A stretch of DNA of 52,280 nt from an uncultured Gammaproteobacteria bacterium (GTDB lineage Bacteria > Patescibacteriota > Microgenomatia > Levybacterales > GWA1-39-11), in the NCBI GenBank assembly GCA_964409875.1, contig CAYPEN010000006.1:1-52280 (forward strand). The letters run 5' to 3'. Under the pieces are notes generated by a model, which ran no database searches, was not told the DNA's origin, and saw nothing but the letters and a program-made list of their open reading frames with translations. Made by a program: the position numbers and the translations under genes. Below, in pieces: positions 17,470 through 50,799 of this stretch (positions within the stretch are counted from its first letter, which is position 1; each line of letters begins with the position of its first letter).

Positions 17470-17472
17470 GGG

Positions 17473-24595: not shown

Positions 24596-24776
24596 GCTTA
24601 TCGTCCTCCAGTGCCGGGATGCGCAGGGGTGGTAGTTCGTTTGTATCGAACACCTCCTCCACCCACCGCTGGGTGCACTCTCGCAAAATGTCCACGTTGT
24701 CGGGAGACTGGTTAAGCGCCGCCTCCAAGTGCGCATCCGTATAGGCCCGGAATAGACGGCCACTGCTATCGCTCAT
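24585..24776 (-). CDS. Hypothetical protein within the que cluster
   Basis: 63 aa, ATGA-coupled to queD. Confidence 0.6.
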   Translation of the reverse strand: MSDSSGRLFRAYTDAHLEAALNQSPDNVDILRECTQRWVEEVFDTNELPPLRIPALEDDKHVR

Positions 24777-25265: not shown

Positions 25266-25976
25266 TTACTTCTTGGCCAGCGCCTTGCGGAAGTCCCCGC
25301 CGATCCAGCTGGACACGGTGGTGGGCTGGACCCCCTGCTTGTTGGCCAGTTTCTCGACCCACTGCTTCTTCTCTCCGTGCTCCAGGGCCTCGTACTCCTT
25401 CAGCCCCGCCTTGAAGGCAACGAAGCACTTCTCCTTGGCGGTTCCTTCGCGAAAACCACCCGCACCCTTCTTGGCCGGGGTGCTGGCCTTCTTCGCTGGC
25501 GCAGCCTTCTTGGCGGCGCTCTTCTTGGTGGCGGGCTTGGTCTTCTTGGCGGTCACTTTCGTCTCCTGATTGGTGTTGGTTGAATCGGTCGTCGTCTCGT
25601 CCGTTGCCGGGGTCCCGGTTTCCGTCTCACTCTTCATGGTCAAATGCTCCTCGTCATCAATTGCGTCCTCGTCGATGTGGGTGGTGTCCACCCCGTTGGC
25701 CTTGGCGCGCAGGAGGACTGTCTGCGCTGCTTTGGTGATGCCATTGCGGGCACCGATCTGTGTGAACTGGTCCACCGCCTGCGTGGCGGGGTAGAGGCCG
25801 TCCTTGTACGGCACCGTGCGGCACTTGGCGAACAGCTCCACCGGACGCTTGACCAAGTGCACCGGATAGTCCGCCATAACGCACAGCATGTACTTGCGGC
25901 CCTTCATGCACAGCGCGGGCTTCTGCAACTGCGTGCGCTCTTGATGTACGTACAGAACCTTGAATTCGTTGCTCAT
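25266..25976 (-). CDS. Protein with an acidic linker, histone H1-like Lys/Ala repeats and a C-terminal HTH-like domain
   Basis: TAKKTKPATKKSAAKKAAPAKKASTPAKKG, then a helical domain ending GVQPTTVSSW. Confidence 0.7.
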   Translation of the reverse strand: MSNEFKVLYVHQERTQLQKPALCMKGRKYMLCVMADYPVHLVKRPVELFAKCRTVPYKDGLYPATQAVDQFTQIGARNGITKAAQTVLLRAKANGVDTTHIDEDAIDDEEHLTMKSETETGTPATDETTTDSTNTNQETKVTAKKTKPATKKSAAKKAAPAKKASTPAKKGAGGFREGTAKEKCFVAFKAGLKEYEALEHGEKKQWVEKLANKQGVQPTTVSSWIGGDFRKALAKK

Positions 25977-29842: not shown

Positions 29843-30685
29843 TTACGCATCGAGCTCGTTGTCATCCAAGTCACTCGGCGTACCGCCACGGCCCCCACCG
29901 GCAACGCCGGAGTCCTGGAGCTCGGAGTAATCCACCCGGCTCTGGTTCACCCGCATGGACTCGTAGAACGCCTGCGCGGTCTGGAACTCCTCCAGCCGCA
30001 TCACCGGCTCCCGGTCCACGCCTTCCCAGATGTACCACGTGCCCTGGTCATTGCTCACTTCCTTGGTCTTGAGCGTGAACACCTGCTGATACCGCTTGGG
30101 GTGTGCCGACACCACCGCACCGTCTTTCGTGCGCAGAGGAGAGATGGCACTGGCGTTCCAGTCCTTGGAGAATTTGAGCATGGTGGAGGACATGGGGATG
30201 AGCGCACCCTCCATGCTGTCGTCCTCGTTGAGCACAATCACGAAATGGCTGTGCGTGCGCACCAGTTCATTCCCATTGGGGAGGATCTGCTTGCGGCTGT
30301 CCTCTGCCTGCCGGGCTTGGCGCACTAGGGGTGTGTTGCTGGGGTGCACGGCCACCAAGCCGCCGCCCTTGTTGCGCGGCACCCATTCGATGTAGGTTTC
30401 GATGAAGTAACAGGGGATCACCCGCACTTCCTTGGCCAGCGCCTTGGTGACGGTGTTGAAAATGTCCCCCGGTGCCGCACCCTTGATGTACTCCGGGCGC
30501 GTCTTTTTCACTTGCGGTGACAGGTCCTGGAGGATGCGCAGGAAGGGAATCGAAAACGCGTCCCCCTTCGTCTCCTCAAACCCCGTCCCCTTGTCGGCCG
30601 CGATGGCCTGTGCCAAATCCGTAGGGACCAACGCGCCGCTCTTCTTGGCCGTGGTGGCCACCTCTTGCTTCTTGCCTGTTGCCAT
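29843..30685 (-). CDS. Putative ssDNA-binding protein
   Basis: IPFLRILQ-x-LSPQV, G-x-IFNTVT, YIEW, aromatic-rich beta core, acidic C-tail (DLDDNELDA); lies in the replication module. Confidence 0.65.
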   Translation of the reverse strand: MATGKKQEVATTAKKSGALVPTDLAQAIAADKGTGFEETKGDAFSIPFLRILQDLSPQVKKTRPEYIKGAAPGDIFNTVTKALAKEVRVIPCYFIETYIEWVPRNKGGGLVAVHPSNTPLVRQARQAEDSRKQILPNGNELVRTHSHFVIVLNEDDSMEGALIPMSSTMLKFSKDWNASAISPLRTKDGAVVSAHPKRYQQVFTLKTKEVSNDQGTWYIWEGVDREPVMRLEEFQTAQAFYESMRVNQSRVDYSELQDSGVAGGGRGGTPSDLDDNELDA

Positions 30686-30687
30686 GA

Positions 30688-31281
30688 TTACTTGCTCCGC
30701 TTCTGTTTGATTGGTTTAACAACTACGACCGGTTGTACATGATGCGTGATGGATTTGGGTAGCGGCTTTGCGGCCTCCACCTGCTCCTTCACAAAGGCTT
30801 TGAGCGTTCCGGCATGCACACCGGAGCGCATCTCGTAGGGAACCTTAGCCTTGTCCAGCAGCGCACGCACACGCTTAATGAACCTGGTGTCCCCCTTCTC
30901 CGCCACGATGGAAAACTGCGTTTTGACCAACGCACCAAATCCATTGTCGTCCAGCCACCTGGTAGCCTCCTCGGCGTTCGCCGCGCTGATGCTGGCGTAC
31001 ACCTCCTTGGTGCGGATGAACTCATCCTCGTCAATCACCATCCGTTCCATGGCCGCCTCGTCCATAAGCGATGGCAGCACCTCCTGGGACAGGCGCGCCA
31101 CCTCTTTGGACGCCGTGGTGGTGCGCTCGTTCAAGTCCCCCACCATGCGCTGCGCCATGCGCAGCTCCAGGGCGGTGGCCTTGATGCGTCCGAGCAGGTC
31201 CGGTGCCGGGGCGTCTGATGTGTCCGCCGCAATGGCTACCGCCAATGCGGGGTCAAGCGTCTGCGTCTTCTTCGTTGCCAT
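30688..31281 (-). CDS. Conserved phage replication-module protein
   Basis: LP-x-x-M-x-E...A-x-x-WL-x-x-NG-x-G-x-LVK...VH-x-x-TLKAFVKE. Confidence 0.65.
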   Translation of the reverse strand: MATKKTQTLDPALAVAIAADTSDAPAPDLLGRIKATALELRMAQRMVGDLNERTTTASKEVARLSQEVLPSLMDEAAMERMVIDEDEFIRTKEVYASISAANAEEATRWLDDNGFGALVKTQFSIVAEKGDTRFIKRVRALLDKAKVPYEMRSGVHAGTLKAFVKEQVEAAKPLPKSITHHVQPVVVVKPIKQKRSK

Positions 31282-31471
31282 CTGCAAATCTCCGTTGTCC
31301 GTGTGGTTGCCCTTCCGCGCGGGAGATTTTAATGTCCTGCCCTGCGCGGAACCCAAGGCGAATGCTGCCATCCGCCAATGTACCCAATACCTCAACCGTG
31401 GCGATGGGATCACCCGTTGCACGTTGCAACAGGTCCACCGCCTGCCCTGCCTTGCGAGTCAAAATCAACAT
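31253..31471 (-). CDS. csrA: CsrA/RsmA-like RNA-binding regulator
   Basis: MLILTRKAGQ...V-x-VLG...IRLG-x-x-A-x-x-DI-x-I-x-RAE follows the CsrA pattern including the conserved C-terminal Arg; AAGGAG RBS. Confidence 0.8.
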   Translation of the reverse strand: MLILTRKAGQAVDLLQRATGDPIATVEVLGTLADGSIRLGFRAGQDIKISRAEGQPHGQRRFADGNEEDADA

Positions 31472-33447: not shown

Positions 33448-33852
33448 ATGGCAGCACGCGCGAAACCCCACCCCTGTACTCCAGGCACGTTCGATGCCAA
33501 AAAAAGGCGCAAGTTCCTGGATGCTTACGCGGAAGGGGCCACGGTTCGTATCGCGTGCAAGAAGGCGGGCATATCCACCGTCACTGTCTCCAACACTGTG
33601 CGCAAGGACCCGGAGTTCAAACGCCAGTACGAAGAGGCCATGGATCGGAACACGGATGCACTGGAGCAGATTGTGGATGGGATGGCGCGTGGCAAGAAGC
33701 CAAACATGATCGCATGTTTCTTCCTGCTCAAGGCCCGTCGGCCGCATGTGTATCGCGACAACCACACTGTCCAGATCTCTGCCGCTGCTGAGACCGTTGC
33801 CGCCTTCGTTGGTGCAATGGCGAAGGTGCAGGGCAGTGCAACCCAAACCTAA
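33448..33852 (+). CDS. terS: Terminase small subunit
   Basis: HTH-type: FLDAY-x-x-G-x-TV-x-x-AC-x-x-AGIS...DPEF...FLLKA-x-RP-x-x-YRD; precedes terL. Confidence 0.8.
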   Translation: MAARAKPHPCTPGTFDAKKRRKFLDAYAEGATVRIACKKAGISTVTVSNTVRKDPEFKRQYEEAMDRNTDALEQIVDGMARGKKPNMIACFFLLKARRPHVYRDNHTVQISAAAETVAAFVGAMAKVQGSATQT

Positions 33853-35482
33853 AGAATCACTCGTCGACCTGAACGTCAAGTACATTGAGCACGTGCGCCG
33901 TGAACCGGTGTGGTTTGCCGAACAAACGTTGCGGCACCGTGCACTGCCAGGTGAAGCCACCCTGGCTGAAGCTCCGGAGAAGTCTTGGGAGCTGGATGAG
34001 TGGACCAAGCAAGCGATGGAGGCCATTGCAGATGTCTGGCGCAAGAAAAACGGCATACCCACCAGGTACAACCACGCTGGCATCCCCCAGATCACAGTAC
34101 GATCGCCTCACGGCTCTGGAAAGACTCATTCAGCTGCTGTTATCTGTCATTGGTTCAACACAGCATTTCCTGGACGCGTCGTTTGCACCGCGCCTAAGCT
34201 TGATCAGCTCCGAACTCGTGTATGGGGCGCGCTTCGAAAGGTTGACGCTCGAGCAGAAGCGTTCCATCGTGCGACTCACGTTATCAATGACACGACCGTC
34301 TATTGGTACCAGGTCAACGACTACGGCAAGATTGTCGAAAACAAGAACTGGTGCATCCTTGCGGAGACCGCGAGCCACCCGGAATCCCTAGCGGGACACC
34401 ACGAACGATACCAGTTGGTGCTGGTCGAGGAGGCCACAGGTGTATCGGAAGCGTTATATCCCGTCGTATTTGGCGCGTTGTCCACGGGAGAGTTACAGGT
34501 TCTACTCCTCATCTCGAATCCGACAAAACGCACGGGTACTTTTGGTGCATCCCACCTGTCCGCGAAGGAAGCACCCAACTGGTTCCGCATTCACGTTAAC
34601 CTCAAGAACAGCAAACGGATTGATCGTTCCTATGTTGCGCGCATGGAAACGAAATATGGGAAGGAATCGCCGATTGTGGCAGTCCGGTGTTACGGGGATT
34701 TCCCCACGGATGACCCCAGGCAACTCATTTCATATTCTTGGATTACGGATGCGCAATCACGCGAGTTCGATCCGATTCTCGGCGATGGCTCGTTACCCAG
34801 AACGCGGATTGTTGTGGACGTGGCTGATGGTGGAGAAGACGAGACCGTTGTTACGATCGGCAAACGGTTCCAGTCGATGGACGTCTTCCTGAAGCAGCGG
34901 CAGTACAGCTTCCCTTCCGCGTTCTCCCCCATCATGGCGGCGGATGCGGCGGAACAGATGTGGAAGGAGTATGGATGTGACGCAACAAAAGGTGACGACA
35001 TCGTTGTCGACTCCTTGGGAGTCGGGGCTGGCACAGCAGGCGATCTTGCAAGGCGTGGATACCCCGTCATCCGCTACGTGGGTGGTTCGGCATCAGACGA
35101 CACGGCTCGTTGGCGAAATCGCCGAACACAAAGTTATCTCGTGCTGCGTGATCGTTTCCGAGACGGGCGAATTGTTATTTCAGAGGACTTTTGCGAGACC
35201 GCTGAAGAGACCGACGAACTTGTTGCCCAGCTTTGCACCATCCAGACCAAGCCCACCGACCGGCTAGAAGACCTGCTCACCAAGGAAGAGATGAAGGACG
35301 CGGGCGTCAAGTCCCCGGACCGCGCCGACACCCTGGCCATGTTCTATGCGACGCAAGCACCCCTCTCCGTCACCAACAACCCCAAAGCCCCGGGAGCACA
35401 GCACGAAGTGATGCCTGAGTTCATCATCCACCAGCACAATTACTTCAGTGGCTACGAAGATTTGAACGGAGGCTCCCGGTAG
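33836..35482 (+). CDS. terL: Terminase large subunit (start uncertain)
   Basis: Walker A VRSPHGSGKT, Walker B-like LVLVEEA, ISNP, nuclease motifs VDVADGGEDET and SPDRAD. Confidence 0.92.
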   Translation: MQPKPKESLVDLNVKYIEHVRREPVWFAEQTLRHRALPGEATLAEAPEKSWELDEWTKQAMEAIADVWRKKNGIPTRYNHAGIPQITVRSPHGSGKTHSAAVICHWFNTAFPGRVVCTAPKLDQLRTRVWGALRKVDARAEAFHRATHVINDTTVYWYQVNDYGKIVENKNWCILAETASHPESLAGHHERYQLVLVEEATGVSEALYPVVFGALSTGELQVLLLISNPTKRTGTFGASHLSAKEAPNWFRIHVNLKNSKRIDRSYVARMETKYGKESPIVAVRCYGDFPTDDPRQLISYSWITDAQSREFDPILGDGSLPRTRIVVDVADGGEDETVVTIGKRFQSMDVFLKQRQYSFPSAFSPIMAADAAEQMWKEYGCDATKGDDIVVDSLGVGAGTAGDLARRGYPVIRYVGGSASDDTARWRNRRTQSYLVLRDRFRDGRIVISEDFCETAEETDELVAQLCTIQTKPTDRLEDLLTKEEMKDAGVKSPDRADTLAMFYATQAPLSVTNNPKAPGAQHEVMPEFIIHQHNYFSGYEDLNGGSR

Positions 35483-38317: not shown

Positions 38318-38628
38318 TTGTGGCACGCATACTGGTGGACAATGTGCGCATGGCCGATGGCCAATTCGAGAAGTCCATCGCGCTGTGCGCGGCTGACGCG
38401 CTGCCCTTGTTCGGCGATGGTTGGCGCAATGACCATCATGTCAGCATGGCGGACGTGCTGCCTGTGTCCGGCGATGGGTGGCACAACCGCCTGGACGCGT
38501 GTTTCGTGGAGGAGATCGGCGTCATTACGCCCGACCAGTGGAACGCGCTCACGCATCTGGTGGCGGAGGACGAGGTGGAGCTTGAGAACAAACTTGCCGG
38601 GAGGCAGCAGACAACGTGGTTGAAATAA
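38314..38628 (+). CDS. Hypothetical protein with an internal 13-aa duplication
   Basis: ADALPLFGDGWRN / ADVLPVSGDGWHN; ATGA-coupled. Confidence 0.55.
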   Translation: MIVARILVDNVRMADGQFEKSIALCAADALPLFGDGWRNDHHVSMADVLPVSGDGWHNRLDACFVEEIGVITPDQWNALTHLVAEDEVELENKLAGRQQTTWLK

Positions 38629-39704
38629 AAGGCGCACACCTGTTCAGCGTCGGCACGTGGAACGACTTGACGTTCACGGAAGCCGACCTCGACCAGATCG
38701 TGCAATCGTTCAAAGACCTGAAGCTCTCGGGCCGCGTGCCGCTTAAGTTCGGGCACAACGACGAGCAGCCCATGACCGACGGCAAGCCCGCTATCGGCTG
38801 GGTGTCGCGCGTGTGGCGCGAGGGCAAGAAGCTGTTCGGCGACTTCAGCAACGTCCCGACCAAGGTGGCCGAGGCCATCAAGAACCAGCTGTACAAATTC
38901 GTTTCGATCGAGCTGTTACGCGATGCCGAGCGAGATGGGGTCACATACCCCTCAGTCCTCGACGCCGTAGCGCTCCTTGGCGCGGACCCTCCTGCGGTGC
39001 GCGATCTTGAATCTTTGAGCGCGCTAGCATGGTCACGCAAGGAAACCGGACTCCGGTTCTCTGCGCGACTCGCGTTCACGCAGGGAAACCCATCTTTCAA
39101 CAATTCAGGAGAATCCAAACCAATGGATAAAGAGGAAATCCAGCGAGCAATCGCGGAGGCACTCGCACCCATTCAGGCGCAGGCGACAGAACTTCAGCAG
39201 AAGTTCTCCGCCAGTGAAGATAAGGTTGCGAAGCTCACCGCCGAGAACGCTGCGCTGAAGAAGAGCGAAGAGGACCGCGCCAAGGCGGACCGTCAAGCGA
39301 AGATCGACGCCAACAAGGAGCGGTTCACCTCGATGACCGAGCGCGCCGTCAAGGCGGGCGAGATCACCCCGGCTGAACGCAACACGCTGCGCGAGAAATT
39401 CATGAAGGACGACGAAACCGTCCTCGCGATCGACTTCGCCATCGTCGAGATGCTCACGGGCAAGGCAGAGACCGACACGCGCAAGCGCAAGGTGGACGCC
39501 TTCTCACGCAGCAACGAGGACATGAACTCGGACGCTGACGAGGCCGCTGAATCCGCCAAGGTCAAGCTCGACGAGCACGTCGCGGGCATGATCACGCGCG
39601 GGGACAAGCGCGACAAGTTCACGCTGATGACCGAGGCCATGCGGTTGCACCCGCACCTGGCGCAGGCGGTCCACGGCACCTACCTGGCAGGAGATCGTGA
39701 GTAA
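38616..39704 (+). CDS. Prohead protease / scaffold (Mu gpI-like)
   Basis: GTWN...PLKFGH...A-x-GW...Y-x-x-VS-x-E...L-x-AVALLGA-x-PPAV; coiled-coil C-half. Confidence 0.85.
   Translation: MVEIKGAHLFSVGTWNDLTFTEADLDQIVQSFKDLKLSGRVPLKFGHNDEQPMTDGKPAIGWVSRVWREGKKLFGDFSNVPTKVAEAIKNQLYKFVSIELLRDAERDGVTYPSVLDAVALLGADPPAVRDLESLSALAWSRKETGLRFSARLAFTQGNPSFNNSGESKPMDKEEIQRAIAEALAPIQAQATELQQKFSASEDKVAKLTAENAALKKSEEDRAKADRQAKIDANKERFTSMTERAVKAGEITPAERNTLREKFMKDDETVLAIDFAIVEMLTGKAETDTRKRKVDAFSRSNEDMNSDADEAAESAKVKLDEHVAGMITRGDKRDKFTLMTEAMRLHPHLAQAVHGTYLAGDRE
39123..39704 (+). CDS. Putative internally initiated scaffolding protein
   Basis: In-frame ATG at 39123 preceded by AGGAG in a locally AT-rich patch, at the protease/coiled-coil boundary. 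Confidence 0.55.
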   Translation: MDKEEIQRAIAEALAPIQAQATELQQKFSASEDKVAKLTAENAALKKSEEDRAKADRQAKIDANKERFTSMTERAVKAGEITPAERNTLREKFMKDDETVLAIDFAIVEMLTGKAETDTRKRKVDAFSRSNEDMNSDADEAAESAKVKLDEHVAGMITRGDKRDKFTLMTEAMRLHPHLAQAVHGTYLAGDRE

Positions 39705-40087
39705 TGGCACTCGACGGACAGAACAGCAAGTGGCAGATCGTCGCGGCAGAAGACCTGCTGACGGGTGCCATGCACAAGGCGGTGGTGGTTGGCGGCACGC
39801 TCGCGCAGGCGGGCTCGGCCACCTACCCCATGCCTCCCTTCGGCATCTTGAAGTCCCAAGGCAAGAGCGGCGAGCAGGTCGCCGTGGCGGTCGAAGGATT
39901 CGTCAAGGCGTTCGTGGGTGGCGCGGTGAACACGCTCGGGTGGCCGCTCGTTGCGGCGAACTCCGGGTTCCTCGTCGCGGGCTCCTACGCCTCGGCGGGT
40001 TCCTCGCAGTACCCGGTCGTGGGACGCCTCGTGGGTCCCGGCGCTGCGGCGTCGGGTGATTTGGCAACCATCTTTTTGACGCCGTAA
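39704..40087 (+). CDS. Capsid decoration / cement protein (DUF2190-like)
   Basis: 127 aa Gly/Ala/Val-rich protein between protease and capsid; G-x-x-V-x-V-x-x-x-G pattern. Confidence 0.7.
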   Translation: MALDGQNSKWQIVAAEDLLTGAMHKAVVVGGTLAQAGSATYPMPPFGILKSQGKSGEQVAVAVEGFVKAFVGGAVNTLGWPLVAANSGFLVAGSYASAGSSQYPVVGRLVGPGAAASGDLATIFLTP

Positions 40088-40102: not shown

Positions 40103-41071
40103 ATGAAAAGGCAAAAATTTGCGCAGTCTCAGGGCGTGCGCGACCTGCACCTGGCCACCTGGCTCAACCAGATGGCCATTGGCTACACGCCGCAGGGCAT
40201 CATCGCGGACCAGATCTTCCCGGTCATCCGCGTCGGCAAGCAGTCGGACATCTACCCGGTGTTCTCGCGTCAGGAAATGCTGACCATCGAGAACACGGAC
40301 CGTGCGCCCGGCACCGCCGCCAAGAAGATCACCCGGTCGGTCAGCTCCGGCACGTACTTCGCCAAGAACTACGCGCTGAAGACCGAGCTGACGGTGGAAG
40401 ATCGCGCCAACATGGACCCGGCGCTGGCGATGGAGTTGATCGGCGGGCGGGGACGCTACCTGCTCAACAAGCTGACCCTGGATTGGGACCGCCGCGTCTC
40501 GCTGCTGGTGAACAGCACGAGCAACGTCGGCAGCTCCGCCGTGGTCGGTTCCGCGTGGAGCGGTGCGGGTTCGCCCATCACCAACATGTGGACAGCGATC
40601 GACAACGTGCGGTATGCCACCGGCTACCGTCCGAACAAGGGCGTGCTCGGCACCAAGGCGTGGGACTCCCTGCGCCGCGACGTGACCGTGCGCAACCTCC
40701 TGTTCGGCACCAACAACGGCGGCGGCTATCCGTCGCTGGACCAGGTGAAGTCGATCTTCGAGCTGGATAGCGTGCTGATTGGCGCGTCGTTCTATTCCAG
40801 CACGAACGAGGCACAGGCTGAGTCGATCCAGGTGGTGTGGCCCGACAACGTGCTGATCTCCTACACCGCTCCCAACCCCACGCGCGATGACCCGTCCTTC
40901 GGTTATTCGTTCCGTTGGGCGGGAGAAGGTCTGTCGGAGTTCAACATTGAGGTCCACCCGTACGATCCCGTCATCAAGGCGGAAGAGATCGAGGCGGGCT
41001 ACTACCAGGACGAGAAGATCACCGGCAAGGAGTACAGCTTCCTGATCCGCGCCGTGAATAGCTCGCAGTAA
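40103..41071 (+). CDS. Major capsid protein
   Basis: 322 aa; IADQIFP-x-I-x-V-x-KQS-x-x-Y...RAPGT...P-x-x-x-V-x-G-x-x-x-W-x-x-L; position after the decoration gene. Confidence 0.88.
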   Translation: MKRQKFAQSQGVRDLHLATWLNQMAIGYTPQGIIADQIFPVIRVGKQSDIYPVFSRQEMLTIENTDRAPGTAAKKITRSVSSGTYFAKNYALKTELTVEDRANMDPALAMELIGGRGRYLLNKLTLDWDRRVSLLVNSTSNVGSSAVVGSAWSGAGSPITNMWTAIDNVRYATGYRPNKGVLGTKAWDSLRRDVTVRNLLFGTNNGGGYPSLDQVKSIFELDSVLIGASFYSSTNEAQAESIQVVWPDNVLISYTAPNPTRDDPSFGYSFRWAGEGLSEFNIEVHPYDPVIKAEEIEAGYYQDEKITGKEYSFLIRAVNSSQ

Positions 41072-41156: not shown

Positions 41157-41234
41157 ATGCCAGCCGTTCCAAGACGTCCCCCACCCAAGCCCAAAGGACC
41201 GCGCCCGCCGATGCCCGGGAAGAAGCCGTGCTGA
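41157..41234 (+). CDS. 25-aa Pro/Arg/Lys-rich peptide (not in ORF track)
   Basis: AAGGAG 7 nt upstream; MPAVPRRPPPKPKGPRPPMPGKKPC*. Confidence 0.5.
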   Translation: MPAVPRRPPPKPKGPRPPMPGKKPC

Positions 41235-41365
41235 GGAAGCCGGAGCCGGAGCGCAACGGCGAGCGCAAGCGCGACGCCGAGCGAACACGTGACCTGCGCG
41301 ACTGGCAGGCGGCGGTCAACAAGGGCTACCGCAACAAAGCCCTGCTGGAGAGGATGAAAAAATGA
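41228..41365 (+). CDS. 45-aa charged peptide (not in ORF track)
   Basis: MLRKPEPERNGERKRDAERTRDLRDWQAAVNKGYRNKALLERMKK*; overlaps both neighbours. Confidence 0.5.
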   Translation: MLRKPEPERNGERKRDAERTRDLRDWQAAVNKGYRNKALLERMKK

Positions 41366-41526
41366 TGCCCGATGACGAGACCCCAGCGGCGGAAGCCGCG
41401 CCCGAGGCTGCGGAAGTGCCTGCCGAGGAAAAGCCCACGCGCCTGGAGAGCGTGGACCAAGACAACACCACCAATCGTTACGGCGAGCGTGCGCCGAACG
41501 AACTGAAGCAACCGAAGGAGGAATGA
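41362..41526 (+). CDS. 54-aa acidic peptide (not in ORF track)
   Basis: GGAGAGG RBS; MMPDDETPAAEAAPEAAEVPAEEK...; ATGA-coupled. Confidence 0.55.
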   Translation: MMPDDETPAAEAAPEAAEVPAEEKPTRLESVDQDNTTNRYGERAPNELKQPKEE

Positions 41527-41789
41527 TGCTGCGCCCATGCAACACAGACGGGACCGTGAAGGACCCGAAGGATTACACGATCGGTGAGCGCGAGGCTGTC
41601 ATCATCGAGATCGAAAACGCCTCGCGCGGTCGCGCGGCGGGTCCCGAGGCCGTGGCCTTCGCACACCGTCTGCGAGACGACTACAAGGGCGAGGGCAAGG
41701 TCCTGGGTGGCCGCGACCTCGACATCAACACGCAGGCGGTCACCCCCTCCAAGGGCGCGGCGGACCTGCTCTCTTCACGCAAGAATTGA
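41523..41789 (+). CDS. Hypothetical protein
   Basis: 88 aa, AAGGAGG RBS, ATGA-coupled. Confidence 0.65.
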   Translation: MMLRPCNTDGTVKDPKDYTIGEREAVIIEIENASRGRAAGPEAVAFAHRLRDDYKGEGKVLGGRDLDINTQAVTPSKGAADLLSSRKN

Positions 41790-41803
41790 CAGGAGGCACG
41801 AAA

Positions 41804-44755
41804 GTGGATGTAACTCTGCACGCTCTGGGAATGCCGTTCAACGGCAAGACCATCTTTGAGAAGTCCCTCGGTGGGTCCGAGACGGCTGCGTATTACCTCG
41901 CGCGGGAACTCGCGCGACGCGGGCACAACGTGAAGGTGTTCACGACGCACCCCGAGGAAGGCACCTGGGATGGCGTCGAGTACATCAACTGCGGGGAACC
42001 CACTGAGGCGTGTCCGTTCGGGTCGAAGTTCCATTTCTTCGCCGCGAACACGCCTCAGGACGTCCTCATCGTGCAGCGCCAGCCCAAGGCGTTCCACTAC
42101 CAGTGGGCGAGCAAGGTCAACATCCTCCAGTGCCACGACCTCGGTCTATATCGGCAGTCGAACGACCTCGGCGAGTCGTTGTGGAATTTATCCGCGATCA
42201 CGGGCGTGAGCTCCTGGCACTGCGACCAGATGGCGAAGGTCTATCCCATCCCGCGCGACCGGTTCACCGTCATCCCCAATGGCGTGGACCTCGACATGTA
42301 CGATTCAATCCCGGCCACGGAGAAGTTCACCAATGACGGCACGCTGCGACTCCTCTACCAATCGCGCCCAGAGCGCGGACTTGAGCACTTGGTGCGTCCT
42401 GGTGGAATCATGGACCGGCTACGAGAGCAACCCATCCACCTGCACGTCTGCGCCTACGACTGCACCGTCCCGGAGATGGTGGGTTACTACGCGCAACTCG
42501 AAGCATGGGCGGAGCTGCTTCCGAATGTCTCCATGCTTGGGGCCTTGAGCAAGCCCGACCTCGCCGCCGTGCAAAAGGCCATGGACCTGCTCGTGTACCC
42601 GACGGAGTTCGAGGAGGTGTCCTGCATCACGGCGATGGAAGCGATGGCCGCGCACCTACCGATGATAACGTCCGAAGTGGCCGCGCTACCCGAGACGTGC
42701 GCGGACTCTGGCACGATCCTGATCCCGTTGAAGGACGGCAAGGCGGACGAGGACGCGTTCGTCGAGGAGCTGATCAAGCAGGCGGGGGATTACTCTCGCG
42801 CATTGCAGCGTGGAGCGCAGATGGATGCCGCGCGCGGCGTGTCTTGGGAAAAGGCCGGGTTCGACCTGGAGCTGCTTTGCAGCAGTCTCCTGAATAAGCG
42901 CAGCGGCTCTGCAATCGCAATGGCCAAGTCCGCAATTGAGTATTCGGACATTGACGTGGCGCGAGAAGCTTGCGATATGTTTTCAAAAGGCTCGGCTAAG
43001 AATTTGATGATATCGCAAAGGCTCGACGAAGAGCTGCACACCATGTACGCCTTCACCGAGTCGCAGGAAGCGTACAAGGCGCACTACGCCAAGCATCAAG
43101 GCGCGTACTACGATGGCCCCGGCGAGTCCGCGATCGGCGAGGACGTCACGAACACGCCGCGCTTTCGGGGCACCGTACTCTCCGCCTCACCCAAGATCAA
43201 GGCGTCGGGTGGCAAAGGCTTGCAGGTCCTGGACTACGGCTGCGCGCATGGTCACTACCTGGTGCCACTCGCAAAGGCGCTCCCGGACTCGAACCTGACG
43301 GGCGTGGACATCTCTGCGCGCGCTATCGGGGCCGCGACCCGCTGGGTGCAACAGGAGGGCCTCGGCAACGTCACGCTCGTGAACGCGGGACAGGAGTGGC
43401 TCGACGAGGACAAAAACCAAGGCAAGTTCGACCTCGTGCTCGCGTGCGAGGTCGTCGAACACGTCATCAACTACGAGGACCTGCTGAACCAGTTCCGCTC
43501 CGTGCTCAAGCCCGACGGCCTGCTCGTCATCACGACGCCTTACGGACGGTGGGAGTGGATCGGTCGGGAAGCCTGCAAGATGGGCCGCGAGCACCTGCGA
43601 CAGTTCGAGCGCGAGGACTTGGTGGAGCTGTTCAAGAACCACAAGGCCGACATCATCTGCGCACCTTCAGGCCAGGACCAAGGCGGCTTCGCTATTGGTT
43701 CTTGGATCACCGCCATTACCTTCAACGGCGATGAGCCACTCGGCAAGATCGACCTGCCGCGCAAGATGTCCCAGTACGCGACGCGCCAAACGGTGAGCGC
43801 GTGTTACATCGTGAAGAACGGCGAGAACATTTTGCGCAGGTCCCTAGACTCGATCGCCGACTACGTGGACGAGGTGCGGATCGGGGTCGATAAGACGACC
43901 AAGGACAACACCTGGCGCGTGATCGCGGAGTTCTGCGCCGCCAACCCGTGGCTCTCAGTGCATAGCCAGGAGATTGATTCCCCCACCGAGATCGGGTTCG
44001 ACGCCGCGCGCAACGCGGTGCACGACGGCGCGGAAGGGGACTGGATCTTCTGGCTGGACGCGGACGAGGAAGTGATCGGTGCACCACAGCTGCACAAGTA
44101 CCTGAAGCCCTCGCTCTGCGACGGGGTGCACTTCCCGCAGGTGCACTACTCGACGCAACCCGCCGCCGTGATCGCGACCGACCGCCCGTGCCGCCTGTAC
44201 CGCAACGGCATCGGTGCGCGCATCTACGGCCTGGTGCACGAGCACGTGGAGGTTGAGATCGGCAAGGCGGTTCCGAACGCTATCATGCGCGACGACATCC
44301 AGTTCTGCCACTCAGGCTACGTCACCGAGGAGGTGCGGCGCAAGCGGTTTCAGCGCAACATGCCGCTCTTGATCAAGGACCTGGAGAAGTACCCTGACCG
44401 CACGCTCAACAAGTTTCTTTACATGCGCGACGCTGCGCAAGGCATCGCGTTCAACCCGCGTGGCGGGTCGGTCGAGGTGCAGGACGCGCAGCGCGTGGTG
44501 GACATGTTCTCAGAGATGCTGGACCATCCAGGCCCCGTGTCGCGTATTCTGATCGACTCCCTGAATTACTACAGCCTTTGCGTCGAAGTCCTGGGAACGG
44601 GCTTCGAGGCCGAGATGCAGTTCAAAACCAAACGCCTACCGCTCGCGGGCGGGTCCTCTATCAAGGGCCGGTTCTACAATCGCGAGCATTTCCTGAAACT
44701 CAGCAACCGGCTTTTCAAGGAGGCCACTGACAAGTATGAAGACAAGTATTTTTGA
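41804..44755 (+). CDS. Tri-domain protein: GT-B (GT4-like) glycosyltransferase + class I SAM methyltransferase + GT-A (GT2-like) glycosyltransferase
   Basis: GTG after AGGAGG. GT4: GGSET...RGH-x-V, IPNGVD, S-x-P-x-RGL, E-x-SCITAMEAMA. MTase: VLDYGCAHG, GVDIS, FDLV...EV-x-EH, LKPDG-x-L-x-ITTP. GT2: YIVKNGE, WLDADE, G-x-VHE. Confidence 0.9.
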   Translation: MDVTLHALGMPFNGKTIFEKSLGGSETAAYYLARELARRGHNVKVFTTHPEEGTWDGVEYINCGEPTEACPFGSKFHFFAANTPQDVLIVQRQPKAFHYQWASKVNILQCHDLGLYRQSNDLGESLWNLSAITGVSSWHCDQMAKVYPIPRDRFTVIPNGVDLDMYDSIPATEKFTNDGTLRLLYQSRPERGLEHLVRPGGIMDRLREQPIHLHVCAYDCTVPEMVGYYAQLEAWAELLPNVSMLGALSKPDLAAVQKAMDLLVYPTEFEEVSCITAMEAMAAHLPMITSEVAALPETCADSGTILIPLKDGKADEDAFVEELIKQAGDYSRALQRGAQMDAARGVSWEKAGFDLELLCSSLLNKRSGSAIAMAKSAIEYSDIDVAREACDMFSKGSAKNLMISQRLDEELHTMYAFTESQEAYKAHYAKHQGAYYDGPGESAIGEDVTNTPRFRGTVLSASPKIKASGGKGLQVLDYGCAHGHYLVPLAKALPDSNLTGVDISARAIGAATRWVQQEGLGNVTLVNAGQEWLDEDKNQGKFDLVLACEVVEHVINYEDLLNQFRSVLKPDGLLVITTPYGRWEWIGREACKMGREHLRQFEREDLVELFKNHKADIICAPSGQDQGGFAIGSWITAITFNGDEPLGKIDLPRKMSQYATRQTVSACYIVKNGENILRRSLDSIADYVDEVRIGVDKTTKDNTWRVIAEFCAANPWLSVHSQEIDSPTEIGFDAARNAVHDGAEGDWIFWLDADEEVIGAPQLHKYLKPSLCDGVHFPQVHYSTQPAAVIATDRPCRLYRNGIGARIYGLVHEHVEVEIGKAVPNAIMRDDIQFCHSGYVTEEVRRKRFQRNMPLLIKDLEKYPDRTLNKFLYMRDAAQGIAFNPRGGSVEVQDAQRVVDMFSEMLDHPGPVSRILIDSLNYYSLCVEVLGTGFEAEMQFKTKRLPLAGGSSIKGRFYNREHFLKLSNRLFKEATDKYEDKYF

Positions 44756-45302
44756 ACGTCTGAAGATGGCAGGCCAAGTCGTCGCGGGCACCCTGCGCCC
44801 GGACGAGATGGTGGCCATCAAAGGCTACTGGGACGTCGAGCACCATGTGGCTCAGCCAGAAGGCGGATGGAAGGTGAAGCGGTGGACGCGCGAGAACGTG
44901 GTGACCGCTGCGGGCATGAACCGCATCGCCAACCGCGCGGTGAACATGACGGTGAACTCGTGGTTCAACTACCTGGTCATCGGCACGCAGACATCCGCGC
45001 CTGCCGACACGGACACGCAGGCGAACGTCGGCGAGGTGACGAACGGCCGCAAGATTGCCGCCGTCAACATCCAGTCTCGCGAATGGATCAGCCTGACGAG
45101 CACCTGGGCGGGGAACGCCGACGGCCTGACGGGCATCGCGCTCGACTCTGCCGCGATCTCCGACTATGTGAACAGTTCGGCGAGCACAGGCCTTATTGCC
45201 AACCGCGTGAACGGCATGGCGGTGACGCTGGCGGCGTCGGACTTCCTGAATCTCACGGTGCGCATCCGCGTGGGTTCCCACAACCAAGCTCACACGACCT
45301 GA
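44736..45302 (+). CDS. Putative virion structural protein (fibre/collar anchor-like)
   Basis: ENVVT-x-AG-x-N-x-IA...Y-x-x-IGT-x-T-x-AP-x-x-TDT...EV...R, a pattern common in phage virion proteins. Confidence 0.6.
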   Translation: MKTSIFERLKMAGQVVAGTLRPDEMVAIKGYWDVEHHVAQPEGGWKVKRWTRENVVTAAGMNRIANRAVNMTVNSWFNYLVIGTQTSAPADTDTQANVGEVTNGRKIAAVNIQSREWISLTSTWAGNADGLTGIALDSAAISDYVNSSASTGLIANRVNGMAVTLAASDFLNLTVRIRVGSHNQAHTT

Positions 45303-46198: not shown

Positions 46199-47818
46199 GT
46201 GTCGAGAATCTACCGCCGTTTCATCCGCGAGACCGCAGGGCGCATCCAGCTCCCGGCCCCGCAAATCTTCTTCCAGATGCTCAGCGACAACGTGCCGGTC
46301 GCGGACATCGCGACTGCGGCGTTGCAGATATTCCCACGGATCAAGGTCAAGACTTTCGACGAGCTGCTCAGGCTTGTCGACGCAAACACGGTCTCATTAA
46401 ACGTTGCCAACAGCGTCAAGTACCCGGTCCTGTTCCCCCGTATGAACGGGGGAACACAAGGATATACGACGGCATGGGTGGCCGATGGATTCACAAATAT
46501 GGACGCCGTGTTGCTTGGAGGACGTTTTGAAAACGTTCCTAGCACGCGCCCAGCCGTGATCAACGCACTTCAAGCCGGCAACGGGTTCGGCGTGACGTGT
46601 AAAGCATCACAGTACATGATCTCGGACTACTACACGACGAACAACAATTATTCAATGAGCGAGGCGAACGCGCCCGTGTGGAACGCCTATCTCAACACAA
46701 ACAACGTTCATCTGTACCTGAATGGAACTAGCGGGACGAAAGCGCCAAACTTTTTTAGGACCGACTTTACGCAGGTCAACCAGTCGGACTACTCAAGCGT
46801 CCCAACGGTTGGCGGGCGCAAGGTAGAGGATGAGTTCGCAAGGCAGGCGCTCAACAATTTTGTAAGTGGCGGATTGTCAGGTTGCGCCCCAAACCTGTAC
46901 TCATTCTTCCACGACAACATCGCAGCCTACGCGGGCGCGGGAACCAACATACCGGCGAACGCCGACTGGAATCGCGACGGGACGTCCGACGTAACCAAGT
47001 CAGACGCCGTGGCGCTGCAATACCGCACCGGACTGAAGCGGTATGTCGATTACATCCGCGCCAATCAGCCCGGATTAAAGGTGGTTGCGAATCTTGCGGC
47101 GACAACGCTCGATGCGAGTGGTAACAGATGTTACGACGTTGGGCCATCTGCGCTTTCCCCGATCTACGGCATCTGGGACGGGTGCATGTTTGAGACCGTC
47201 TATGGCGATAAGACCTACTCGATGATTCAGTGGGCAGGACTTCAAGCCACAATCAAAGCCGCGCAATACTATCAGGACTTTTGCATCGACCCACAGCTGA
47301 CGCAGTTCGCGATCATCGGCATGCAGTCGAATGGCACCGACACCATTCGCACGGCGCTCGGGCAGGCGTTTCGCTGGTCGTTCACCGCTTGCCTTGTGTT
47401 CACTGACATGGGGTACTGCTGGACCGGCTCTAGCGGCAATCGACCGGACGGTATTTCCCCGAAGCTTGATTTTTTTGGCGAGTTCTCGGCGCACCCGAAC
47501 ACGGGCGTGTGCTCGACCGCCTGGAGCAACGCTGCGCAGTGGCGTAAGTGGATGGGCACTCGCCAAGGCCCGCGCGTCGCGTACAACGCAAGCCCCTGGC
47601 AGAACGGCTGCTACCGCCGCATTTTCAACGGACAGAACGGCAAGCCCGTCATGGCGATCCACAACCCGAATACCACGCCCGCGACGGTGACGCTGGACGC
47701 GAACTACCGGCGCTTGACGGGAGGCTCGGACCCCGCCGTGAACGACGGGCGCGCGCAAAACACGGGGTCCACGGTCAACCTCTTGGGGCAGGACGGCATC
47801 ATCCTGCTGGGGCAGTAG
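46199..47818 (+). CDS. Putative glycoside hydrolase-like protein (GHL15-type TIM barrel)
   Basis: FFHDN, DWNRDG, WDGCMFE; C-terminal G-x-Y-x-R-x-F...HNP...V-x-L...Y-x-x-L-x-G...L-x-x-x-DG-x-IL. Confidence 0.55.
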   Translation: MSRIYRRFIRETAGRIQLPAPQIFFQMLSDNVPVADIATAALQIFPRIKVKTFDELLRLVDANTVSLNVANSVKYPVLFPRMNGGTQGYTTAWVADGFTNMDAVLLGGRFENVPSTRPAVINALQAGNGFGVTCKASQYMISDYYTTNNNYSMSEANAPVWNAYLNTNNVHLYLNGTSGTKAPNFFRTDFTQVNQSDYSSVPTVGGRKVEDEFARQALNNFVSGGLSGCAPNLYSFFHDNIAAYAGAGTNIPANADWNRDGTSDVTKSDAVALQYRTGLKRYVDYIRANQPGLKVVANLAATTLDASGNRCYDVGPSALSPIYGIWDGCMFETVYGDKTYSMIQWAGLQATIKAAQYYQDFCIDPQLTQFAIIGMQSNGTDTIRTALGQAFRWSFTACLVFTDMGYCWTGSSGNRPDGISPKLDFFGEFSAHPNTGVCSTAWSNAAQWRKWMGTRQGPRVAYNASPWQNGCYRRIFNGQNGKPVMAIHNPNTTPATVTLDANYRRLTGGSDPAVNDGRAQNTGSTVNLLGQDGIILLGQ

Positions 47819-47821
47819 CGC

Positions 47822-48976
47822 ATGGCCAACTACTCAGACGACTTCAACAGATCGAACGGTAGCATCGGCTCCGACTACACAGCGATGACCGGGTTATCGA
47901 TCCCGGTCGTGAACACCAACCAGGTGGCCGCTGGGTCTTCCGCGTCGTTCGCCGCGCGTGTGACCGTCGTCTCGTGGGGCGACAACCAGCGATCCAACAT
48001 ACGCATGAAGGCGTGCTCGACGAGTTGCGGCATCATGGCGGGCGTGCGCTTCCAGTCGACCGCCATGAACGGCTACGCCTTGCAGTTCTCAGGGGCCATT
48101 GGCGCGAGCCAAGCTTGGAGGCTCAAGCGCATCACTGCGAACGCAGAAACACTCTTGGCTTCCGGCACCGCCTCGACGGCAGCGAACGACATCATCTCGG
48201 TCAGCGCCGTCGGTACCGTGATCACGGGGTACTTGAACGGCGCGATCCTTGCGCAGGTGGTCGACACAACCTACCCCACGGGCGGTGCGCCCGGGATGTA
48301 CCTGTTCGGCAGCTCGGCCGTGGGCACCCTCGCGGCGGATGACTTCTCTGCGACCGACGAGGGGTTTGCCTCGGACGACTTCAACCGCCCGGACGACACC
48401 TCGCTTGGCGCGAACTACACCGTGCAGTTCGGCCTGAACGACATGAAGATCGTGTCGGCCAAGGCGATCCCGACCAACTACTCGAACGACTGCGGCGCGC
48501 TGTGGGACACCTCGCTCTTCGCGAACGACCAAGCGGGCGAGATCATCGTCGGGACCTTGGGTAGCCCCGGCGTCGTGGGCGCGGGTGTCGGCGTGCTGCT
48601 GCGCGGGAGCTTCGGCCTGGAGACGTTCTATCGCGCCTACGCGAGCCTCGCCTCCAACAGTGTGAAGATTGCGCGACGCCTTGCAGGTACGGGCAGCTCC
48701 TTGGCGACCCTCACGGGCGCCGGTATCGCCTCAGGGGACATCTTCCGGTTCGACGCCACCGGCACCACGCTCACCGTCTATAAGAACGGCACGCAGATAC
48801 TCCAGACCACGGACTCGAACATCGCGGGCGGCCAGGTGGGCGTGACCTATTCCTCGACCGACTCCGCTGGCACGGACTCGATCGCGGCGTTCAACGCCTA
48901 CGGTGCGCAGCCGATCCCGGGTGCGCTGTACCCCGACTGGGCCAGCTCCATTGCGCGCGTGGTGCGCAACCTATGA
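47822..48976 (+). CDS. Tandem beta-sandwich (lectin/ConA-like) virion protein
   Basis: Two homologous ~180-aa halves, each starting SDDFNR-x-x...G-x-x-Y and ending with G-x-x-I-x-x-Y-x-NG...D...G-x-x-G. Confidence 0.6.
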   Translation: MANYSDDFNRSNGSIGSDYTAMTGLSIPVVNTNQVAAGSSASFAARVTVVSWGDNQRSNIRMKACSTSCGIMAGVRFQSTAMNGYALQFSGAIGASQAWRLKRITANAETLLASGTASTAANDIISVSAVGTVITGYLNGAILAQVVDTTYPTGGAPGMYLFGSSAVGTLAADDFSATDEGFASDDFNRPDDTSLGANYTVQFGLNDMKIVSAKAIPTNYSNDCGALWDTSLFANDQAGEIIVGTLGSPGVVGAGVGVLLRGSFGLETFYRAYASLASNSVKIARRLAGTGSSLATLTGAGIASGDIFRFDATGTTLTVYKNGTQILQTTDSNIAGGQVGVTYSSTDSAGTDSIAAFNAYGAQPIPGALYPDWASSIARVVRNL

Positions 48977-50799
48977 GCGGAATTTCTCGAATCATCTCTG
49001 CCGTCTGCAATCAAGGACCGAGAGCACCAAGCATATTGTCCAAGTATATGCTGGATGTTCTTTCCTTGGCAGACTCTAAAACTGCAACTGTTTTTCATAC
49101 CGATGTGGGCGCTCCTGTGCTGCTTGCCACGGATATTGTGGCTGGACCGATAACAGGTGGCGAGAACGGCAACGGCATATACATCAACCTGTATGGCTTT
49201 AACTTCGGTACTACGGGCATGGGCACTACGATCAAAGCCTATGCTCAGTATTCCGGTACTTGGCACGAGGTGGCCGGCTATCTTCAGTTTTCCGACACGG
49301 CCTGCGCCCCCATCTTCGGAATTCGCAAATTATGCATCGAGATTGGAGCCATAACTGGCGCGACAGCAGGCAGCGTGCTCAACTTAAAAGTCAGCGTTGG
49401 TGGCGTAGACTCGAACACTGACCAGACATTCATGGTCGCGCCTGGAGACATCTACTACGTTGACCCATCGTCGGGTAGCGAAGCGACCGGTACGAAGAAC
49501 GACATTACTAAGCCGTACTTGTACCCGCAGGTGTGGAACGGAAGCTCATTCACCGGCATCTGGTCAACGCTCAAAGCCGGGGACTTCATTGTCCTGCGCG
49601 CTGGAAGCTACAGCAGCACCAATGGCTATGATAGCCGGTGGATTCGCTTCCGCACTTCCGTCACCGGAAGCGCGCCCGATGGCACCAGCGGCAAAGGCTA
49701 CGTGTCCATTCGCGCTTACCCAGGAGAGACGCCAACGTGGAATGGCGCAAGTGGATCGTATGGGGCGATCCACGGCTGCGGAACTGCGAACTCCAGCAGC
49801 GGTTATGGTCGCTATACAGTTATCTCTGGGGTGAAGTTCGTTGGACCATCGACAAGCGGCTCTACTGATGCAGGCCCAATCAACTTGCAAACTGGGGCTA
49901 ACTATTGGCGGGTATTCGACAACGATATCACTTGGCCATCGACCGATAGTGGAACCTCGCACCAAAAGGCGGGTGGAATTGCAGGTAACGGGAATCCGTT
50001 AATGATCATGTTCAACTACGTGCATGACATCGCTGGCGGCGATTCGTCGAGCTTGGAGAACCACGGCATATACCTCGACGGTTCGAACAACTGCGCGGCA
50101 AATTTCGATATTTCCTACAACTACATCAAGAACGTTACGACAGGATCGCTAATCCAGTGCCACAACCAATCGGCAGCGGACCTGTTCACCAACGGCCGCA
50201 TATACAACAACTGGTGCGAGAACAGTGGCAAGTACGGAATCAACCTGGACTCGTTCCAGAATATTGACGTGTGGAACAACGTTGTGCAGGGCACGAAGCG
50301 CAACGGGCTGCGGTTCAACCCGAACACCTCGCAGACCAATGTGCAGGGGCGTGCAGCGTTCAACACGTTCTACAACTGCTACAGCGACACGACTGGCGCG
50401 TACCCCGGTGTGATTTCTCAAGAGGCGTCACCCGCAGCGGGCAGCGGCACGAACTACATTAAAATTTCGCAGAACATCGTGTGCCTGGCGTCGAGCCGCA
50501 CGAACACGAACGTCAGCTTCGTTCAGGACAACGGCGGCTTCTGCACGTTCGACCAGAATCTGTATTACGACTACAAGAGCCTGGTCACGTCCAAGTACAG
50601 TGGGGATGCCAACGGCCTTTATGGATCGCCGACCTTCAATACGCCTGGGTCAGACTTCGGTCTGGCGACAGGGAGTGCGGCAATCGCTGCAGCTACCGAT
50701 GCAGTATTGTTTACCGTGAGTACGGACTTCGTGTACAAGGCGCGGCCTTATAGTGGAAGGTCGTACCCGTCAATCGGTGCGTACGAGGTCACATTCTAA
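48973..50799 (+). CDS. IPT/TIG-like domain plus right-handed beta-helix (pectate-lyase-like) depolymerase-like protein
   Basis: GP-x-TGGE...I-x-G-x-NFG; YYV-x-P-x-x-G...GD-x-I-x-LRAG-x-Y; I-x-AYPGE; repeated Asn-ladder strands (NY-x-HD, HGIY, NN-x-x-x-N). Confidence 0.7.
   Translation: MSGISRIISAVCNQGPRAPSILSKYMLDVLSLADSKTATVFHTDVGAPVLLATDIVAGPITGGENGNGIYINLYGFNFGTTGMGTTIKAYAQYSGTWHEVAGYLQFSDTACAPIFGIRKLCIEIGAITGATAGSVLNLKVSVGGVDSNTDQTFMVAPGDIYYVDPSSGSEATGTKNDITKPYLYPQVWNGSSFTGIWSTLKAGDFIVLRAGSYSSTNGYDSRWIRFRTSVTGSAPDGTSGKGYVSIRAYPGETPTWNGASGSYGAIHGCGTANSSSGYGRYTVISGVKFVGPSTSGSTDAGPINLQTGANYWRVFDNDITWPSTDSGTSHQKAGGIAGNGNPLMIMFNYVHDIAGGDSSSLENHGIYLDGSNNCAANFDISYNYIKNVTTGSLIQCHNQSAADLFTNGRIYNNWCENSGKYGINLDSFQNIDVWNNVVQGTKRNGLRFNPNTSQTNVQGRAAFNTFYNCYSDTTGAYPGVISQEASPAAGSGTNYIKISQNIVCLASSRTNTNVSFVQDNGGFCTFDQNLYYDYKSLVTSKYSGDANGLYGSPTFNTPGSDFGLATGSAAIAAATDAVLFTVSTDFVYKARPYSGRSYPSIGAYEVTF

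Follow-up and report, generated by a model that had tools for sequence, protein, structure and literature searches.

The stretch of DNA analyzed here, hereafter the window, comprises 52,280 nucleotides (nt) of an uncultured assembly (contig CAYPEN010000006.1, GCA_964409875.1) and looks like the nearly complete genome of a siphovirus, ~52 kb in length. Downstream of its major capsid protein gene lies a gene (41804-44755, + strand; enclosing open reading frame (ORF) 41786-44755, + strand) encoding a protein of 983 amino acids (aa) in which a family GT4 glycosyltransferase, an S-adenosylmethionine (SAM)-dependent methyltransferase and a family GT2 glycosyltransferase are fused in one chain. The analysis suggests, with moderate confidence, that this fusion serves to glycosylate a structural protein of the virion, building a short methylated glycan on it.

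The GT4-methyltransferase-GT2 fusion protein

A preliminary description of the window, made from the sequence alone, had placed the start of the gene at GTG 41804 and recognized in its ~983-aa product GT4, methyltransferase and GT2 domains with intact catalytic motifs. Because an AGGAGG Shine-Dalgarno (SD) sequence lies 7 nt upstream, this GTG is the likely start codon, which bears out both the start and the length; the TTG at 41786 was rejected in favor of the GTG, which has the SD. The architecture was upheld as well, with Pfam models for the three domains scoring above their gathering thresholds and the catalytic motifs invariant in an alignment of 49 full-length homologs (45-93% identity), the set to which invariance within the fusion refers throughout. 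PHROGs and NCBIfam concurred with Pfam on the three-domain content, and AlphaFold2, supplied with a 49-homolog alignment, returned a compact model with a predicted local distance difference test score (pLDDT) of 91.7 and a predicted template modeling score (pTM) of 0.91. Transmembrane segments were not found (maximum Kyte-Doolittle mean over 19 residues, 1.1), and the protein is predicted to be soluble and cytoplasmic.

The N-terminal domain combines the two-Rossmann GT-B fold with an EX7E motif, as expected of GT4. Pfam Glyco_transf_4 (PF13439) matched aa 23-164 at 55.8 bits (cut-off 28.5), and Glycos_transf_1 (PF00534; 40.5 bits, cut-off 26.4) and Glyco_trans_1_4 (PF13692; 45.9 bits, cut-off 27) matched aa 224-323. 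Invariant residues comprise G23-G24-S25-E26, R188-P-E-R-G192 and the E271/E279 pair of EX7E. The structural relatives retrieved with Foldseek were GlgM, PimA, glycogen synthase, MshA, WaaG and BshA (TM(target) 0.6-0.77), and a methylmannose-polysaccharide mannosyltransferase is also among the relatives of the domain; so many and various retaining GT-B enzymes offer no clue to its acceptor. An all-helical linker follows, its helices (348-468) modeled mostly at pLDDT 85-97, with dips to 66-75 at aa 431-450.

Pfam Methyltransf_23 (PF13489) matched aa 469-613 of the central domain at 77.2 bits (cut-off 27), and four further Pfam methyltransferase models (Methyltransf_31, 12, 25 and 11) matched too. 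Motif I, LDYGCAHGH (D477-x-G-C-A-H-G-H484), and D502 are invariant. Relatives in the PDB were generic O-, N- and protein-lysine methyltransferases, with a glucose O-methyltransferase among them at 4e-07.

The third catalytic domain was matched by Pfam Glycos_transf_2 (PF00535) at aa 667-757 (36.9 bits, cut-off 23.3). Each element of the GT2 signature named in the preliminary description was found, as IVKNGE (aa 669-674), LDADE (751-755) and GLVHEH (809-814), and D696, D752-x-D754-E755 and H812-E813-H814 are invariant; the DADE and VHEH motifs align with those of GmaR, SunS and ThuS. Compared with the PDB as a single sequence, the domain matched GmaR at 4.3e-14, ThuS at 5.1e-08 and SunS at 7e-03. 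The family profile (109 PDB matches, 60 of them listed) matched the same enzymes at 1.4e-24 (GmaR), 1.2e-17 (SunS) and 7.7e-13 (ThuS), the next GT-A entry following at 4.6e-08. In a Foldseek search with the whole model, SunS and ThuS were the top GT-A matches, with alignments of 300-360 columns that extend past the GT-A core and into the helical region. By these comparisons, the domain is closer to GmaR, SunS and ThuS than to other GT2 enzymes. Many residues are conserved in the C-terminal region beyond it, modeled as helices at 842-930, strands at 934-957 and a helix at 960-974.

Three homologs of the fusion (P0087, P0108 and P0074) are interrupted by inteins, which usually occupy functionally critical sites. 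Two of these inteins lie inside the GT4 EX7E motif (EFEEVS|intein|CITAMEAM), before the invariant Cys274, and one lies immediately before the GT2 VHEH motif.

Distribution and linkage to the capsid gene

Megablast of the fusion gene against cultured phages gave no match, and among 50,697 phage records tblastn found only 18 partial, single-domain matches at 24-35% identity, none of them to a mycobacteriophage. Metagenomes yielded more than 120 clusters (90% identity) of full-length three-domain homologs on contigs of up to 64 kb. A search with the GT2 and C-terminal regions returned at least 311 clusters (50% identity) at E <= 1e-30; of the top 150, almost all are proteins of ~950-1050 aa matched at their C-terminal third, and thus represent the same fusion. 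Matches in GTDB genomes were confined to phage-sized contigs of metagenome-assembled genomes, with neither an isolate nor a prophage context among them, so that a host could not be assigned from GTDB.

The survey of gene neighborhoods that had been proposed at the outset revealed a linkage without exception. Loci collected from IMG/VR and analyzed with tblastn included 89 distinct ones with a full-length fusion (31-98% identity). All 71 for which 3 kb or more of upstream sequence was available encode a capsid homolog upstream on the same strand, at a median gap of 413 nt. Independently, when capsid homologs (33-57% identity) were used as the seed, the fusion was present in each of the 49 loci whose downstream sequence reached 3.5 kb or more. 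The five nearest cultured phages by capsid protein (22-28% identity), namely RDJL Phi 1, KPP23, Arthrobacter phage Ottawa, CRP-6 and a Bacillus phage, have the same order of head-module genes and lack the fusion. Given its linkage in all sampled loci and its absence from these outgroups, the gene is best regarded as a core head-module gene that defines the clade, and not as a moron.

The same sets of phages differ at the C-terminus of the capsid protein. That of the window ends ...FLIRAVNSSQ, the last five codons (VNSSQ) spanning 41054-41068. In 103 distinct capsid proteins of the clade, taken from fusion-bearing loci (related loci L001-L167), a tail extends 3-10 residues past the final hydrophobic stretch (...FLLxAV), with the pattern V-[N/G/T/A]-S-[S/A]-...; the forms include NSS with a final T, Q, S, H or N (31 proteins), [G/T/D/Q]SS with a final T, Q, N or V (21), sequences like GSAQANGLT (22) or ASGAAGLG (7), and VTSV (9). 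The five outgroup proteins stop where the tail starts (...GGIVA, ...AGIVQ, ...STAVI, ...DTVVA and ...NPLIK).

Neighboring genes, host and DNA modification

The features of the window are collected in Table 1. As had been described, the fusion gene lies in the head module, after the capsid gene and on the strand of the terminase, portal, protease and tail genes, and far from the genes of DNA metabolism; the replication genes occupy 13.6-33.1 kb on the opposite strand. A scan for promoters and terminators from the capsid gene to the radical-SAM gene found nothing above shuffled expectation, and since the interval between capsid gene and fusion thus holds no convincing promoter or terminator, the fusion is probably co-transcribed with the head operon.

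Table 1. Coordinates of the domains of the fusion and of other features of the window.
Feature	Position	Strand	Basis or remark
Shine-Dalgarno sequence AGGAGG	41791-41796	+	Read from sequence; 7 nt 5' of GTG start 41804
GT4 (GT-B, retaining-type) domain, aa 1-340	41804-42823	+	Pfam, Foldseek, motifs
All-helical linker, aa 341-465	42824-43198	+	AlphaFold2; no family match
Class-I SAM-dependent methyltransferase, aa 466-640	43199-43723	+	Pfam, motif I
GT2 (GT-A) domain, GmaR/SunS/ThuS type, aa 641-840	43724-44323	+	Pfam, PDB profile, Foldseek
Helical and beta-hairpin C-terminal region, aa 841-983, plus stop	44324-44755	+	AlphaFold2
188-aa beta-sandwich protein	44736-45302	+	phrog_4176 'tail fiber protein', 1.6e-08; ATG overlaps 3' end of fusion gene, 20 nt
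BtrN-like radical-SAM enzyme, 231 aa	45502-46197	+	Pfam Radical_SAM; ATG 45502 (ORF opens 45364)
Terminase large subunit	33746-35482	+	Late operon
Mu-type portal fused to MuF-like head-morphogenesis domain, 790 aa	35486-37858	+	
Head protease/scaffold	38616-39704	+	
Gly/Ala-rich 127-aa protein, probably decoration	39704-40087	+	No family match; position conserved in relatives
Major capsid protein	40103-41071	+	phrog_1005 major head protein, 1.3e-52
Three small overlapping ORFs	41228-41789	+	Between capsid gene and fusion
Proteins of 539, 384 and 608 aa	46199-50799	+	Downstream of radical-SAM gene
673-aa protein, neck proteins, tail tube, tape measure, distal tail, J-like tip	30-12126	+	Operon continuation
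J-like tail-tip protein	9760-12126	+	
Rz-like spanin	13110-13472	+	
DpdA/TGT-like transglycosylase	21009-22004	-	7-deazaguanine set, early operon
FolE, with 180-aa N-terminal extension	22333-23418	-	7-deazaguanine set
QueE	23882-24763	-	7-deazaguanine set
QueD	24773-25210	-	7-deazaguanine set

By its overlap, the gene of the 188-aa protein appears to be translationally coupled to the fusion gene. The AlphaFold2 model of this protein (pLDDT 77.8) is a beta-sandwich which, among predicted viral structures, resembles small beta-sandwich domains, small proteins of archaeal viruses and tail-fiber or tail-collar domains; solved structures gave one weak match, a tail chain of Haloferax virus HFTV1 (E 4e-3). 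Its C-terminus, RIRVGSHxxH[ST][ST], is invariant, and the protein looks to be structural. The gene stands directly 3' of the fusion in 39 of 69 loci; in loci without it, a gene for a Mu gp36-like head-tail adaptor often takes the place directly after the fusion.

In the radical-SAM protein, an alignment of the family (24 sequences) shows the CxxxCxxC motif and a conserved C-terminal C-x13-G-x4-C...CxxC. Its profile matched BtrN over nearly the full length (2.7e-14), and other radical-SAM entries over the N-terminal core only. BtrN is a small radical-SAM 2-deoxy-scyllo-inosamine dehydrogenase with a sugar-like aminocyclitol as substrate, and with such an enzyme as the near-full-length relative, a role in sugar tailoring is plausible for the phage protein. 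Of 34 well-covered loci, 19 have the gene in the head module, in one of three places: downstream of the fusion, upstream of the protease gene, or in the interval that separates the fusion from the capsid gene.

The portal-MuF fusion is kept in the relatives, reaching 1053 aa in locus L002. Between the radical-SAM and neck genes lies a variable block (46199-50799 and 30-2051, + strand), the proteins of which (539, 384, 608 and 673 aa; Ser+Thr 14-20%) are mostly without matches, the 384-aa protein corresponding to phrog_2804 (virion structural protein); neither a family nor a PDB match was found for the 539-aa protein. In the same block, L002 carries a polysaccharide lyase gene (16763-17677). 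The block's products may be head or neck fibers, or depolymerases.

The host is probably a Gram-negative (diderm) bacterium, given the Rz-like spanin and the relatives of the J-like tail tip (741 records), which among the organisms listed are phages of Gram-negative hosts only. An integrase was not recognized among the ORFs screened, nor was a tRNA gene found. The early operon, on the opposite strand, includes genes for 7-deazaguanine modification of DNA. QueC was not recognized, the adjacent 235-aa ORF (25266-25976) being without matches, and the modified base may for this reason be a rarer 7-deazaguanine derivative. A locus scan seeded with DpdA returned no loci; one seeded with PolA returned four related loci, covered in their replication regions, without the 7-deazaguanine cluster. 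Two genes of the replication module (29843-31422, - strand) match Pfam DUF7307 and Pam3_Gp34 (cyanophage Pam3 gp33 and gp34), and in related loci L169-L171 their counterparts likewise lie next to the genes of primase and helicase.

Function of the fusion and comparison with known systems

Glycosylation of the virion had been proposed in the preliminary description. The proposal of a virion protein as the target is strengthened by the invariable linkage to the capsid gene across the clade, by a GT2 domain whose closest relatives in both sequence and fold, GmaR, SunS and ThuS, are protein glycosyltransferases, and by the presence of a separate early-operon 7-deazaguanine cluster that already provides for DNA modification. 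The accompanying argument, that many virion proteins are very rich in Ser and Thr, is weak and was overstated; Ser+Thr amount to 12-20% in structural proteins versus 9-11% in replication proteins.

As envisaged here, the fusion would be a late-expressed, trifunctional cytoplasmic enzyme that acts during head morphogenesis. Its GT-A domain (DxD, metal-dependent, inverting) would transfer the first sugar from a host nucleotide-sugar to a Ser or Thr (or Cys) of the acceptor, the helical C-terminal region aiding recognition of the acceptor protein. The N-terminal GT4 domain (EX7E, retaining) would attach a second sugar, and the central methyltransferase would methylate the glycan; in about half of the clade, including the phage of the window, the BtrN-like enzyme would probably oxidize a sugar hydroxyl. 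This order of steps, GT2, GT4 and methyltransferase with optional oxidation, is inferred from the activities of the relatives. The most probable acceptor would be the major capsid protein, through its short Ser-bearing C-terminal tail, a feature specific to phages with the fusion. The 188-aa fiber-like protein is a secondary candidate; as an obligatory acceptor it was ruled out by its absence from 29 of 69 loci. A bolder form of the proposal is tentative and, on balance, doubtful: that capsid glycosylation is an obligatory, self-contained pathway at the core of head morphogenesis, in which the tail Ser is O-glycosylated and the glycan extended, methylated and often oxidized. Equally speculative is its extension to a large and globally distributed clade of siphoviruses of Gram-negative hosts, all with a uniform virion coat of modified sugar.

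Several observations weigh against a role in virion glycosylation. Position in a phage operon is no proof of function; the correlation with the capsid tail rests on five outgroups and may be explained by shared ancestry; and the genes for the 188-aa and radical-SAM proteins are not universal among the loci. Genes for nucleotide-sugar synthesis were not found beside the fusion, and the clade is without a cultured member among the cultured phage records and GTDB genomes. With respect to the enzyme, the relatives of the GT4 and methyltransferase domains are generic, including enzymes that act on small molecules, lipids or polysaccharides as well as protein-lysine methyltransferases, and a protein could just as well be the substrate of the methyltransferase. 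The best NCBIfam match of the GT2 domain, the SunS equivalog (TIGR04195), reached 34.3 bits against a cut-off of 350, a value so far below the threshold that the domain is to be seen as a relative of the SunS enzymes and not as a SunS equivalog; a GmaR/SunS-like domain could, moreover, act on a protein or peptide outside the virion.

This last possibility is the strongest of the alternatives, although we regard it as unlikely. The target would be a subunit of a host surface organelle, such as flagellin or pilin, or a scaffolding or other non-structural protein of the phage, modified so as to change host physiology, block superinfection or regulate assembly. The enzyme is predicted to be soluble and cytoplasmic, and of its nearest characterized relatives GmaR has flagellin as its substrate and SunS and ThuS have secreted peptides. 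Genes for host manipulation are usually variable and peripheral, however; the fusion belongs to the core gene set and keeps its place between the capsid and neck genes in every sampled member of a clade that probably infects different hosts. Genes for a precursor peptide or its export were not found nearby.

Somewhat less probable again is a late-made glycoconjugate other than protein, such as a methylated oligo- or polysaccharide or an intermediate of lipopolysaccharide (LPS) or capsule, which would alter the cell surface or aid release. WaaG, PimA, glycogen synthase and the methylmannose-polysaccharide mannosyltransferase are all among the GT4 relatives, pairs of GT4 enzymes and O-methyltransferases make methylated polysaccharides in mycobacteria, and a polysaccharide lyase gene is present in the variable region of relatives. 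Against this, the GT2 domain groups with protein glycosyltransferases and not with the GT2 enzymes of polysaccharide synthesis, the fusion lacks membrane segments, and genes for a flippase, polymerase or lipid carrier were not found; the gene also belongs to the core of the head operon of a phage in which no integrase was recognized among the screened ORFs. Seroconversion of the Gtr type (GtrA/GtrB/GtrC, temperate phages) was rejected, there being neither a hydrophobic segment in the fusion nor an integrase recognized among the screened ORFs.

Hypermodification of the phage DNA with a methylated sugar, in the manner of the T4 glucosyltransferases or of clusters dependent on 5-hydroxymethylcytosine or 5-hydroxymethyluracil, is highly improbable. 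The phage clearly invests in DNA modification, and phage GT-A and GT-B enzymes are known to glycosylate DNA, some of their clusters being located near structural genes; these clusters normally accompany TET- or ThyS-like enzymes (bioRxiv 10.1101/2023.12.21.572611), but no TET/5mYOX or thymidylate-synthase-like hydroxymethylase was recognized among the ORFs screened with PHROGs, Pfam and NCBIfam, of which a few small ones are without matches. The 7-deazaguanine module, moreover, looks complete and sits apart in the oppositely oriented early operon, the relatives of the GT2 domain are protein glycosyltransferases, and related loci, covered in their replication modules, are without the deazaguanine cluster.

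Glycosylation of a virion protein thus being the favored reading, its consequences may be considered. To our knowledge, mycobacteriophages are the only phages whose own enzymes have been shown to glycosylate the virion; there the modification is accessory and shields virions from antibodies. If the capsid of the present clade is indeed modified, surface glycans would be an ancient and essential feature of some phages of Gram-negative hosts, with a bearing on how stable the particles are, how they adsorb and how they escape grazing or immunity, and on how densities in cryo-electron microscopy are interpreted. The fusion would also provide a compact enzyme of three activities for protein glycoengineering in the bacterial cytoplasm. 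As the window encodes both the enzyme and every candidate acceptor, the hypothesis can be tested in Escherichia coli without the phage.

Of the known enzymes, those closest to the GT2 domain share with it the KNE, DAD(E/N) and VHE motifs and the succession of a GT-A domain and helical repeats. The N-terminal domain of GmaR transfers N-acetylglucosamine (GlcNAc) to flagellin, and the tetratricopeptide repeats that follow it are thought to bind the substrate (PMC9638930); ThuS glycosylates both Cys and Ser of its peptide (PMC12457901). Unlike the fusion, GmaR (the flagellin O-GlcNAc transferase of Listeria) and SunS and ThuS (S- and O-glycosylation of glycocins) are stand-alone bacterial enzymes without GT4 or methyltransferase domains, are ~16-30% identical to the GT2 domain, and have flagellin or bacteriocin precursors as acceptors. 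BtrN and the radical-SAM neighbor likewise share a small size and a C-terminal Cys motif fit for an auxiliary cluster, whereas BtrN belongs to a bacterial aminoglycoside pathway and its relative here to a phage head module.

Among viruses, cluster O mycobacteriophages carry an O-methyltransferase gene and three glycosyltransferase genes (Corndog gp35-gp38) inside the head operon, the products of which are expressed but not packaged and have been proposed to modify the capsid (PMC4351075). The capsids of Che8-type phages are glycosylated (PMC11256854), and mycobacteriophage glycans are reported at the C-termini of capsid and tail-tube subunits (Freeman et al. 2023, as cited in PMC12619734 and PMC11256854). 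As in the window, phage glycosyltransferase and methyltransferase genes are in these cases tied to structural genes. In Corndog, however, they are separate genes between those of portal and protease, variable among phages with actinobacterial hosts, whereas the present clade has a single 983-aa fusion as a core gene 3' of the capsid gene and a host that is probably Gram-negative.

The closest parallel in architecture is A064R of chlorovirus PBCV-1, a GT-GT-methyltransferase protein that elongates the glycan of the capsid protein and methylates its terminal sugar (PMC7826918). A064R, as also A111/114R, resembles the fusion in being viral and in joining two glycosyltransferase domains to a methyltransferase; it is absent among the matches listed (60 of 109) for the family profile against the PDB. 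It differs in coming from a eukaryotic giant virus, in its length (638 aa), in its GT-GT-methyltransferase order and in its use of rhamnose to extend N-linked glycans, as opposed to a GT4-methyltransferase-GT2 order here with a GT2 domain that looks like an enzyme priming a protein. With Corndog, Che8 and A064R as precedents, the kind of system is already known. What is new is, first, the GT4-methyltransferase-GT2 fusion itself, which appears unrelated in sequence to the enzymes of all three, and the presence within a phage head module of a domain that, by its sequence, is of the GmaR/SunS type. New, too, are the strictly conserved status of the fusion as a core gene, its association with a BtrN-like radical-SAM enzyme and the probable Gram-negative host.

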